Translations under genes and position numbers: made by a program
Shown: positions 35,994 through 37,586 of the stretch, piece by piece
Position numbering within the stretch: position 1 is the first letter of the stretch
Layout of the letters: every line of letters starts with the position of its first letter
DNA from: a phage
Sequence record: PZ445437.1
DNA length: 64,000 nucleotides
Strand: one strand, 5' to 3'
Notes under the pieces: model-generated
Database searches by the model: none
Seen by the model: the letters and a program-made list of their open reading frames with translations, nothing else
Told to the model about the DNA's origin: nothing

Positions 35994-36069
35994 TGGTCGA
36001 GGCAGTAGGGATCGAACCTACGACCTAGGACTTAGAAGGTCCTTGCTCTTCCTTCTGAGCTATGCCCCG
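35994..36069 (-). tRNA. tRNA-Arg (anticodon UCU)
   Basis: Cloverleaf folded by hand: acceptor CGGGGCA/TGCCTCG, anticodon loop CUUCUAA, T-arm GGTTCGATCC, encoded CCA. Confidence 0.8.
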
Positions 36070-36073
36070 TAAT

Positions 36074-36149
36074 TGGGGTGACCGATGGGAGTCGAACCCA
36101 TGACTACGAGAATCACAATCTCGAGTTCTACCAACTGAACTACGGCCAC
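36074..36149 (-). tRNA. tRNA-His (anticodon GUG)
   Basis: Acceptor GTGGCCG/CGGTCAC, anticodon loop TTGTGAT, discriminator C, encoded CCA. Confidence 0.65.
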
Positions 36150-36263
36150 ATTAATACCTACTCCAACAATCAAGATGTCTTCACACGAAATTAAGAGAAG
36201 AGTGATCAGTTCAACCCCTATAATCGCGTCAAGTAGATATTAATGTGACAGTTGTCACAAATT

Positions 36264-36338
36264 TGGCGGACGTGATAGGATTCGAACCTATAACCAATCG
36301 CTTAACAGGCGATCGCTCTGCCATTGAGCTACACATCC
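36264..36338 (-). tRNA. tRNA-Asn (anticodon GUU)
   Basis: Acceptor GGATGTG/CACGTCC, D-arm GCTC/GAGC, anticodon loop CTGTTAA, encoded CCA. Confidence 0.7.
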
Positions 36339-36342
36339 AAAT

Positions 36343-36429
36343 TGGTGGGGAGTGATGGAGTCGAACCACCCGAGTCGCAATGACAATGGATTTACAGTCC
36401 ACACCGCTACCTCTACGGGATAACTCCCC
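36343..36429 (-). tRNA. tRNA-Tyr (anticodon GUA), class II with long variable arm
   Basis: Acceptor GGGGAGT/ACTCCCC, anticodon loop CTGTAAA, 15-nt variable arm, encoded CCA. Confidence 0.65.
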
Positions 36430-36438
36430 AAATTAATT

Positions 36439-36513
36439 TGGTGGCCCTGGGTGGAATTGAACCACCATCTGGCGATTATGAGTCGCTTGCTTGAACCTTC
36501 CAGCTACAGGGCC
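36439..36513 (-). tRNA. tRNA with anticodon CAU (Ile via lysidine, as in T4, or Met)
   Basis: Acceptor GGCCCTG/CAGGGCC, anticodon loop CTCATAA, encoded CCA. Confidence 0.7.
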
Positions 36514-36514
36514 T

Positions 36515-36590
36515 TGGTGCTGATTGACGGAATCGAACCGCCGACCTTCTCATTACAAGTGAGTTGCTCTACCTACTGAGCTAAATCAGC
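36515..36590 (-). tRNA. tRNA-Thr (anticodon UGU)
   Basis: Acceptor GCTGATT/AATCAGC, anticodon loop CTTGTAA, encoded CCA. Confidence 0.8.
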
Positions 36591-36595
36591 AAAAC

Positions 36596-36685
36596 TGGCG
36601 GAGGCGATAGGATTTGAACCTATGAGTCGCCGGAGCGACTGCCGGTTTTCAAGACCGGTGCATTAAACCACTCTGCCACGCCTCC
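36596..36685 (-). tRNA. tRNA-Ser (anticodon UGA), class II
   Basis: Acceptor GGAGGCG/CGCCTCC, anticodon stem-loop CCGGT-CTTGAAA-ACCGG, long variable arm, encoded CCA. Confidence 0.8.
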
Positions 36686-36691
36686 AAATAT

Positions 36692-37300
36692 TTATATATT
36701 GTTAATTTGATTTAGAATTCTTTTTGCTTGAGTATGACTTACGCCAATATGCTTAGCATATTTAGATAATTCACCACGCTTAGAAAAATCATATAATTTA
36801 GAAATTTCTATTCTTCTTTTTCTTTCATCCACAGAAACTTTTGCTTCGTTTGCTTTTGCTATTTTACGTTTAGCTTCTTGAGAATGAGTTTTACCAGCAA
36901 AGCCATTCTTCATTAATCCATTTGAAGACCATCCTTTTAATTTTCCGTTAGAATGTGCCTTTTTAACACCCAATGAAATTAATTCGCGTTGCTGGTCTGT
37001 CATAGGATAATTATTTATATGATCCCATCCACCTTCACCGCCAAGTTTTAAATTATACACATCTGGTCTATTTAAAAACTCTTCTGTAACAATATTTTTC
37101 TCGGCTTCAAGCATAGATTCTTTATCATCAAAATACTCTAATATTTCTTTAGAAAAATTTTCTATACCATACTTATCTTGGGCTCTTTTTAATAATTTAC
37201 CAGAACCCATATATCCATCATCTAAATTTTCGGTAGAATGCACACCAATATAAATTTTATTATTAATTTTATTTGTTATTTTATAAAGATAAAAATGCAT
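36692..37300 (-). CDS. segB: GIY-YIG homing endonuclease SegB-like, inside the tRNA cluster
   Basis: ORF 36692..37342; MHFYLYKITNKINNKIYIGVH GIY-YIG-type motif plus NUMOD-like C-terminus; start at the internal Met is preferred because the longer ORF abuts tRNA-Gly. Confidence 0.65.
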   Translation of the reverse strand: MHFYLYKITNKINNKIYIGVHSTENLDDGYMGSGKLLKRAQDKYGIENFSKEILEYFDDKESMLEAEKNIVTEEFLNRPDVYNLKLGGEGGWDHINNYPMTDQQRELISLGVKKAHSNGKLKGWSSNGLMKNGFAGKTHSQEAKRKIAKANEAKVSVDERKRRIEISKLYDFSKRGELSKYAKHIGVSHTQAKRILNQINNI

Positions 37301-37346
37301 ATCAGTCCCTAATAAAGAACTGAGCGTCTCACGACGAGTCATAAAT

Positions 37347-37420
37347 TGGAGCGGATAATGAGAATCGAACTCACATCATCAGATTGGAAGTCTGAGGTAA
37401 TACCATTATACGATATCCGC
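37347..37420 (-). tRNA. tRNA-Gly (anticodon UCC)
   Basis: Acceptor GCGGATA/TATCCGC, anticodon loop CTTCCAA, encoded CCA. Confidence 0.8.
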
Positions 37421-37425
37421 AAATT

Positions 37426-37512
37426 TGGTGCGAGAAGTGGGACTCGAACCCACAAGGAAATCATTCCGCAGCATTTTAAGTGCTGTGCCTTTACCAATTT
37501 GACCATTCTCGC
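37426..37512 (-). tRNA. tRNA-Leu (anticodon UAA), class II
   Basis: Acceptor GCGAGAA/TTCTCGC, anticodon stem-loop CAGCA-CTTAAAA-TGCTG, encoded CCA; 1 nt from tRNA-Gln. Confidence 0.8.
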
Positions 37513-37513
37513 G

Positions 37514-37586
37514 CTGGGAATAAAGGACTCGAACCTTTGCATCCTGGAATCAAAATCCAGTGCCTTACCAACTTGGCTAATTCCCA
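37514..37586 (-). tRNA. tRNA-Gln (anticodon UUG)
   Basis: Acceptor TGGGAAT/ATTCCCA, anticodon stem-loop CTGGA-TTTTGAT-TCCAG; CCA not encoded. Confidence 0.8.

Follow-up and report, generated by a model that had tools for sequence, protein, structure and literature searches.

The window analysed here is a 64,000-nucleotide (nt) stretch of phage DNA (record PZ445437.1), and its minus strand carries at positions 35994-37586 a cluster of ten tRNA genes with the free-standing gene of a GIY-YIG homing endonuclease (seg) between tRNA-Gly and tRNA-Ser. We consider it very probable that this is a Tequatrovirus tRNA operon of the AR1/RB18 type, which has been subject to modular turnover and in which a chimeric Seg gene occupies the slot of tRNA-Pro. 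This reading builds on direct observations of the gene anatomy, of sequence homologies and of the distribution among phages, which are described below.

The tRNA genes and the chimeric endonuclease in the tRNA-Pro slot

Scanning of the full 64 kb with ARAGORN resulted in ten tRNA genes, all of them located within 35994-37586 on the minus strand; no further tRNA gene and no tRNA-Pro were detected in the window. In the order of transcription, the locus consists of tRNA-Gln(UUG) (37513-37586), Leu(UAA) (37426-37512), Gly(UCC) (37347-37420), the 651-nt seg open reading frame (ORF; 36692-37342), Ser(UGA) (36596-36685), Thr(UGU) (36515-36590), a CAU-anticodon tRNA (36439-36513), Tyr(GUA) (36343-36429 by ARAGORN, otherwise taken as 36342-36429), Asn(GUU) (36264-36338), His(GUG) (36074-36149) and Arg(UCU) (35994-36069). 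Nine of these tRNA genes scored 59-74 bits with Rfam RF00005 (cut-off 29). The tRNA-Tyr, which has a long variable arm, gave a sub-threshold match to the tRNA-Sec clan alone in Rfam, and its assignment is backed by ARAGORN and by the 85/88 identity to the tRNA-Tyr of T6. The CCA end is encoded in all the tRNA genes except Gln, the 3' end of which reads ...CCCAG-C and directly abuts Leu. The spacers are, in the order of transcription, 0, 5, 661 (with the seg gene), 5, 1, 9, 3, 114 (Asn to His) and 4 nt.

The original prediction, made from the sequence letters and without database searches, had listed the same genes: ARAGORN agreed with all ten coordinates and anticodons, the listed order being the reverse of transcription. 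The absence of tRNA-Pro and the nine encoded CCA ends were also predicted correctly. The proposed packing of 1-5 nt is correct in part, as spacers of 0, 9, 114 and 661 nt occur as well. The T4 gene set given with the prediction is correct as well, since the T4 record contains Gln Leu Gly Pro Ser Thr Ile, segB, Arg, rnaD, rnaC. This eight-isotype reference set is not matched by the window, where Pro is absent and Tyr, Asn and His are present, as had been stated; the isotypes of the window are those of AR1 and RB18.

The Leu and Gly genes are identical to those of T4 (87/87 and 74/74, respectively), and the Ser gene is identical to that of T2 (90/90). For CAU and Arg, the window has the T2-type alleles, with identities of 75/75 and 74/76 to T2 versus 47/75 (T4 Ile) and 48/76 to T4. 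The tRNA-Gln shares 65/74 positions with the Gln genes of T4, T2 and T6, and the tRNA-Tyr 86/88 with that of T2. Some isotypes nominally in common with T4 are therefore different genes, namely Gln, CAU and Arg.

The homology to T4 and T2 breaks 5 nt past the CCA of tRNA-Gly and resumes at the first base of tRNA-Ser. Between these points, a 651-nt cassette replaces ATTTA, tRNA-Pro and CT, which confirms the earlier placement of the endonuclease gene in the position of tRNA-Pro. The seg ORF carries the Pfam GIY-YIG domain (26.8 bits versus the cut-off of 22.6), and its residues 15-108 are about 97% identical to T4 SegB. The likeness to T4 SegB fades over the next ~20 residues and is gone after approximately residue 131 of the 216-amino-acid (aa) ORF. 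The DNA of the 5' leader and of the first half of seg is near-identical to T6 segB, despite the T6 gene following tRNA-Tyr and the window gene following tRNA-Gly; both cassettes start directly behind CCAATTTA of the tRNA that precedes them. The alignment of the two genes collapses just past GGATGGGATCATATAAATA, at the domain boundary, placing the breakpoint near 37013-37019. The C-terminal half of seg gave weak NUMOD3 and helix-turn-helix (HTH) matches just below the Pfam cut-offs; 55 phage records contain it with an identity of at least 95%, and in T4-like phages of Klebsiella the identity is ~70%.

Judged from these alignments, the window endonuclease is a chimera of a SegB-type catalytic half and an unrelated C-terminal DNA-binding half. 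By the same comparison, two features which define SegB are lacking from the window gene, the C-terminal half and the position, the latter being between Gly and Ser here and before Arg in T4, T6 and FL44. The earlier description of the gene as SegB-like is accordingly correct for the catalytic half and incorrect for the C-terminal one, and T4 segB itself is located between Ile and Arg, not at Pro.

The probable start codon of seg is the second ATG, at 37300, resulting in a product of 202 aa, because the Y17/G19 numbering of T6 SegB (PMC13096335) fits this start and a 609-nt gene is annotated in RB51. Both residues are essential in T6 SegB (PMC13096335) and are present in the window protein. Two nucleotides before the probable ATG, a Shine-Dalgarno-like AGGGA is held in the minus-strand hairpin UCAGUUCUU-UAUU-AGGGACUGA (37302-37323). 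The fold of the leader, which is identical in T6 segB, was determined to be -14.1 kcal/mol (z = -2.2). Hairpins sequestering the ribosome-binding site have been proposed for T4 segB (PMC2330249, PMC2988022), and by analogy the hairpin of the window may repress the translation of seg.

It would also be conceivable that seg is a decaying, inactive remnant and that homing at this locus belongs to the past, but we regard this as improbable. T4 SegB exceeds the protein by 19 aa, the label in RB51 and RB68 is 'truncated SegB-like protein', and a clearly degenerate relative devoid of the nuclease is found in T2. However, the ORF is intact, its C-terminal half is 98-100% conserved at the protein level in about 55 records, and the fetched AR1-type loci show 99-100% identity to one another in the catalytic half. 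The protein is not truncated: its C-terminal half is of full length, differs from that of T4 SegB and contains NUMOD3-like and HTH-like segments, and the presence of Y17 and G19 also speaks against decay. The comparison with PDB sequences gave no match at E <= 1. In IMG/VR, eight distant relatives alone were found (29-48% identity); this database was unsuited to a population survey of seg, and the annotated phage collection was used in its place.

Turnover of the locus among related phages

The distribution of the endonuclease types was determined with joint queries against the phage collection. The T4 tRNA-Pro joined to the 3' half of the window-type seg matched 424 records at 425 places; the seg half was found in 55 records, and at most one record contained both. 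In the mirror query, the T2-type tRNA-Asn, identical in the window, was joined to the 3' half of the T4-type segB and resulted in 473 records with 474 places. Each endonuclease type occurs almost solely in genomes without one particular tRNA gene. This near-exclusivity is as homing predicts for an endonuclease gene that replaces its own target.

The architectures of the relatives were determined with ARAGORN and tblastn on fetched loci together with the record annotations. At least ten architectures were distinguished, with endonuclease genes or their remnants at four positions, each replacing at least one tRNA. T4 and FL44 have the order Gln Leu Gly Pro Ser Thr CAU, segB, Arg, and T6 has Gln Leu Gly Thr CAU Tyr, segB, Arg. 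The order is Gln Leu Gly Pro Ser, Seg remnant, CAU Tyr Asn Arg in T2 and Gln Leu Gly, seg, Ser Thr CAU Tyr Asn Arg in RB51 and Phaginator. The window and AR1 follow the RB51 order with the addition of a leader and tRNA-His. PBM-1 has an HNH endonuclease gene in place of Gln, followed by the window order; the order in CM8 is HNH, Leu Gly, seg, Ser Thr CAU, scar, Arg, and in teqskov Gln Leu Gly Pro Ser, scar, leader, Arg. In this comparison, of the kind proposed with the original prediction, gene content varies from phage to phage, and the T4 content is not identical to that of the window.

In Shigella phage CM8, the scar (771-874 of the fetched locus) is a Tyr/His chimeric tRNA joined inside GGTTCGACTCC, an 11-mer common to the T-loops of Tyr and His and also the core of the SegB site. 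The scar of teqskov (2931-3138 of the fetched locus) is a Thr/Asn chimera joined in the D-arm and followed by the His leader without tRNA-His. The chimeras are deletion scars left by recombination between tRNA genes, and both chimeric tRNA genes are probably dead. The HNH endonuclease gene that replaces tRNA-Gln encodes 202 aa (1955-2563 of the CM8 locus and 2214-2822 of the PBM-1 locus). A DNA-binding module shared by this HNH protein and Seg was considered and not adopted: a 24-aa C-terminal HTH-like match alone was found (E = 2e-4 pairwise; phrog_16521, E = 2e-4), which is a weak hint.

In T2, a 133-aa ORF (3711-4112 of the fetched locus) stands in place of Thr; it is 33% identical to the C-terminal half of Seg (E = 1e-15) and has no nuclease motifs. 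This ORF, which belongs to phrog_16521, is labelled 'tail sheath monomer' in the record. An unannotated remnant of the Seg C-terminal module was also observed between tRNA-Asp and tRNA-Lys of Serratia phage LC53 (~1543-1812 of the fetched locus).

The cassette-like turnover of the tRNA locus is well supported. Several of the junctions are marked by endonuclease genes, and the remaining events are plain recombination between conserved tRNA segments. T4 SegB cuts the 3' ends of tRNA genes and, in mixed infections, drives the inheritance of the T4 tRNA region (PMC2330249). The T6 enzyme amplifies tRNA-Tyr to escape Septu, and SegB homologues co-localise widely with tRNA genes (PMC13096335). In the proposed mechanism, the embedded gene would be a free-standing GIY-YIG homing endonuclease, with the leader and catalytic domain of T6/T4 SegB and a DNA-binding half acquired from another lineage. 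Breaks made by endonucleases at the 3' ends of tRNA genes, with co-conversion of the flanks, and recombination between conserved tRNA segments would together have produced the differences from T4. The original prediction of a cassette-like turnover driven by the resident homing endonuclease thus agrees with the ten or more architectures as regards the turnover, whereas the role of the driver is carried over from the experiments with T4 and T6 SegB (PMC2330249, PMC13096335).

As regards possible targets, seven tRNA genes of the window match the published SegB site consensus GGTTCRANTCC...CCAR, and the tRNA-Asn is identical to the T2 allele, which is the preferred cleavage site of T4 SegB (PMC2330249). 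The tRNA-Asn of RB51 (1276-1350 of the RB51 locus) is an allele unlike that of the window and T2, with differences of the T-arm and acceptor inside the published 27-bp SegB recognition site. As a minor possibility, the exchange of the DNA-binding half may direct the nuclease domain of SegB to the allele with tRNA-Pro, which would amount to a distinct homing specificity.

The codon demand of the phage was estimated by comparing 80 mechanically chosen ORFs of the window with 41 annotated Escherichia coli genes from a 50-kb sample. Relative to E. coli, the phage over-uses AGA 9.9-fold, AUA 5.3-fold, GGA and ACA 3.7-fold each, UCA 3.5-fold, UUA 2.9-fold and CAA 1.6-fold, and these are the codons read by seven of the window tRNAs. 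The AUA codon is included on the basis of the CAU tRNA, which was labelled as Met by ARAGORN and is annotated as Ile in the RB51 record. Its best full-length matches in E. coli (80-82%) are genes annotated as tRNA-Ile, with a median of 2 places per genome, and it is most likely a tRNA-Ile2 of the ileX/ileY type, which carries lysidine and reads AUA. The amino acids most over-used by the phage are Lys, Tyr (1.82-fold) and Asn (1.65-fold), whereas His (0.67-fold) and Pro (0.72-fold) are under-used. The seven tRNAs would therefore supply codons far commoner in the AT-rich phage than in E. coli. The over-use of Tyr and Asn accounts for the tRNAs which would serve them, and the under-use of Pro would make the loss of tRNA-Pro cheap. 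The comparison for His, Asn and Tyr proposed with the original prediction gave, at the level of amino acids in the 80 ORFs, over-use for Tyr and Asn and the opposite for His.

These numbers also bear on another explanation, in which the isotype set is due to selection for translational fit to the hosts and to ordinary recombination, the endonuclease gene being a passenger. Tyr and Asn are among the three most over-used amino acids and Pro is under-used, and no endonuclease gene is found at the junctions of the CM8 and teqskov chimeras or of the His indel. In contrast, phages with differing tRNA sets are 96-99% identical across the locus and share the host species, so that their codon demand barely differs. 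Endonuclease genes or remnants lie at four different replacement points, and the endonuclease-dependent conversion of this very locus by T4 SegB has been demonstrated experimentally (PMC2330249). We consider the passenger explanation rather unlikely.

Several points weigh against the turnover of the operon with a chimeric Seg in the Pro slot as it is read here. The exclusivity is partly forced, because the slot holds either the endonuclease gene or the missing tRNA, the two being alleles. The activity, the target and the causal role that we infer for the window Seg concern an enzyme whose DNA-binding half is unlike that of the characterised SegB enzymes. No endonuclease gene borders the His module, which is a plain indel, and codon or amino-acid demand does not explain the tRNA-His. 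The basis of the codon comparison, mechanically chosen ORFs and a 50-kb sample of the host, is to be counted here too.

The tRNA-His module and the extent of the operon

In RB51, T2 and Phaginator, tRNA-Asn is followed by 4 nt and tRNA-Arg, and the window adds a 114-nt spacer and tRNA-His. The spacer (36150-36263, minus strand), identified as a structured leader by folding and by comparison across phages, folds at -32.7 kcal/mol (z = -4.4). It consists of a small hairpin (36244-36259) and a 95-nt element whose closing helix of 14 bp is AU-rich and ends, with its 3' strand, exactly at position -1 of tRNA-His. At least nine other Straboviridae genera include phages in which this helix directly precedes tRNA-His, usually after tRNA-Gln, and the insert between its strands varies among the phages from ~2-3 nt to ~79 nt. 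Across ten distinct sequences, 97.1% of the helix cells pair and four pairs are changed on both sides; this level of pairing was reached in 0 of 500 shuffles and by no slid register. In the inner 4-bp arm with the loop UC(A/U)UGAU, five pair types occur at one position. Both helices of the leader were recovered by RNAalifold on unedited sequences, and the G-U pairs on the minus strand speak for an RNA rather than a DNA structure. The covariation, counted on few and related sequences in a helix alignment assembled by hand, is suggestive.

The leader gave no Rfam match at E <= 1. Its origin from a degenerate tRNA is not supported, as ARAGORN and Rfam find none in it and the structure combines a closing helix of 14 bp with no more than a 4-bp arm that carries a loop of 7 nt. 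The His genes of the window and of five other phages (L015, L017, L019, L024, L026) have U at position -1, while C73 and the GUG anticodon are kept. E. coli hisR begins with GGTGGC and includes an encoded G-1, on which the HisRS of E. coli depends. G-1 together with C73 is the main identity element of bacterial tRNA-His (PMC9976931). Within the literature available to the searches, no description of a phage tRNA-His leader or of its missing G-1 was found.

Tentatively, the leader may be an undescribed conserved RNA element that governs the maturation or use of the G-1-less phage tRNA-His, by acting in the processing of the 5' end or as a released stable small RNA; we hold this to be possible, with the odds against it. 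The species 1 and 2 RNAs of T4 are structured non-tRNA RNAs inside the operon and are released from the common transcript. The T4 rnaC and rnaD resemble the His leader in being structured non-tRNA RNAs of a tRNA operon, and there is no sequence similarity between them. If the G-1-less tRNA-His functions in E. coli, or is deliberately uncharged, this would bear on the rules of tRNA identity and on the reasons why phages carry tRNAs.

The tRNAs for Tyr, Asn and His might alternatively be mainly spare parts or decoys against host defences which cleave tRNAs. These three are among the four GUN-anticodon tRNAs, the class cut by anticodon nucleases of the colicin E5 type, and the tRNA-His has no explanation from demand. 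The tRNA-Tyr of T6 counters Septu (PMC13096335), and that of the window is 85/88 identical to it. On the other hand, Tyr and Asn are also explained by demand, and the tRNA-His has no G-1 identity element, so that its charging itself is in doubt. A main role as decoys is thus possible for these tRNAs but doubtful, and the modular turnover of the operon is preferred for the locus as a whole.

The operon extends beyond the coordinates 35994-37586, which comprise its tRNA part alone. Upstream of tRNA-Gln, a promoter-like sequence is located at 37656-37680 (minus strand) with a MotA-box-like TGCTTTA, 12 nt and TATTAT. The sequence from TGCTTTA through the -10 element and ~50 nt further is identical to that upstream of the T4 tRNA-Gln, and a T4 middle promoter has been placed just upstream of the tRNA cluster (PMC2330249). 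The generic sigma-70 scan was uninformative, as it resulted in 10 sites versus 9.3 expected from shuffles and was not above background; the region is assigned a putative promoter function because of the identity with T4.

Downstream of tRNA-Arg, the minus strand contains a 116-aa ORF (35625-35975; phrog_3355, function not known), which lies before rnaD; it is present in T2, RB51 and AR1 and absent from the fetched loci of T4, T6, teqskov, Phaginator and FL44. Homologues of rnaD (35509-35628; T4 species 2 stable RNA) and rnaC (35364-35502; T4 species 1 stable RNA) were identified on the same strand by alignment to T4 and from the T4 annotation. The mean column identity of the rnaD-rnaC region to T4 is 88% with the unaligned ends counted, and no Rfam match at E <= 1 was obtained in 35364-35628. 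An intrinsic terminator-like hairpin with a T run (35290-35313, minus strand) is conserved with T4 and is likely the end of the operon. The Rfam matches to sX4, Plastid-ycf2 and YrlA were dismissed, as they overlap tRNA genes and are far below their own cut-offs.

The hallmarks of a Tequatrovirus operon, the leading Gln-Leu-Gly block and the downstream rnaD-rnaC followed by a terminator, are thus found in the window. The locus is assigned to a T4-like coliphage with the AR1/RB18-type layout. The genomic position, between the e.x genes and trna.2-trna.4/ipI, is a further hallmark: AR1, with 98% identity over this stretch, has the locus flanked by e.8 and trna.2/3/4, and the neighbours in T4 are the same. 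Transcription on the minus strand would proceed from the T4-type promoter region through the ten tRNAs and seg to the small ORF, rnaD, rnaC and the terminator at ~35290, and host enzymes would process the transcript into tRNAs.

Comparison with known phages and endonucleases

The region 35600-37700 was compared with 50,697 phage records by megablast. Matches were obtained in 982 records, and 36 of them cover at least 80% of the 2.1-kb query. The best matches were vB_Eco_EL (98.7%), AR1 (98.1%) and RB18 (98.0%), and no record among the 50,697 was identical over the 2.1-kb stretch. The layout is annotated at 97-98.7% identity in AR1, RB18, vB_Eco_EL and about 20 further Tequatrovirus records; the AR1 record includes the ten tRNAs in the window order, the endonuclease gene (named segD there) and matching flanking ORFs. 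The Met, Tyr and Asn genes absent from T4 are known in T2L, RB1 and RB3 (PMC2330249). The novelty implied by the original prediction is therefore absent, since the identical ten-gene layout has been annotated in AR1, RB18 and others. The layout has been deposited repeatedly, and the variation of the locus among T-even phages and its SegB-driven inheritance were published in 2008, with an extension in 2026.

The additions of the present analysis are modest: the domain-swapped Seg, its near-perfect exclusivity with tRNA-Pro, the recombination scars, and the leader and missing G-1 of tRNA-His. The locus is a textbook hypervariable region of the T-even phages and a compact natural record of the mutual replacement of endonuclease and tRNA genes. 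The window contributes a clear example of a nuclease domain that has been combined with another DNA-binding module.

The closest relatives, AR1, RB18, vB_Eco_EL and KIT03, share with the window the ten tRNAs in the same order, the Gly-seg-Ser arrangement, the flanking ORFs and the His leader, and differ in point differences alone. T4 agrees with the window in the genomic position, the sequence of the promoter region, Gln-Leu-Gly, Ser, Thr, rnaD, rnaC and the terminator, and the GIY-YIG domains are near-identical. However, T4 has Pro, is without Tyr, Asn and His, and carries other alleles of Ile and Arg (47/75 and 48/76), while its segB is positioned between Ile and Arg and has another C-terminal half. 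T2 or T2L has identical CAU, Asn and Ser genes, similar Tyr (86/88) and Arg (74/76) genes and the 116-aa ORF downstream of Arg. Unlike the window, T2 keeps Pro, is without Thr, His and an intact endonuclease gene, and has the 133-aa nuclease-less relative of Seg between Ser and CAU. T6 shares the tRNA-Tyr and the near-identical DNA of the seg leader and catalytic half, but its segB follows Tyr, precedes Arg and has the T4-type C-terminal half, and Pro, Ser, Asn and His are missing. In its domain organisation, an N-terminal GIY-YIG domain and a C-terminal NUMOD3-like/HTH-like DNA-binding region, the window Seg resembles the modular GIY-YIG endonucleases of the I-TevI type; in contrast to the intron-encoded enzymes of that type, it is encoded by a free-standing gene.

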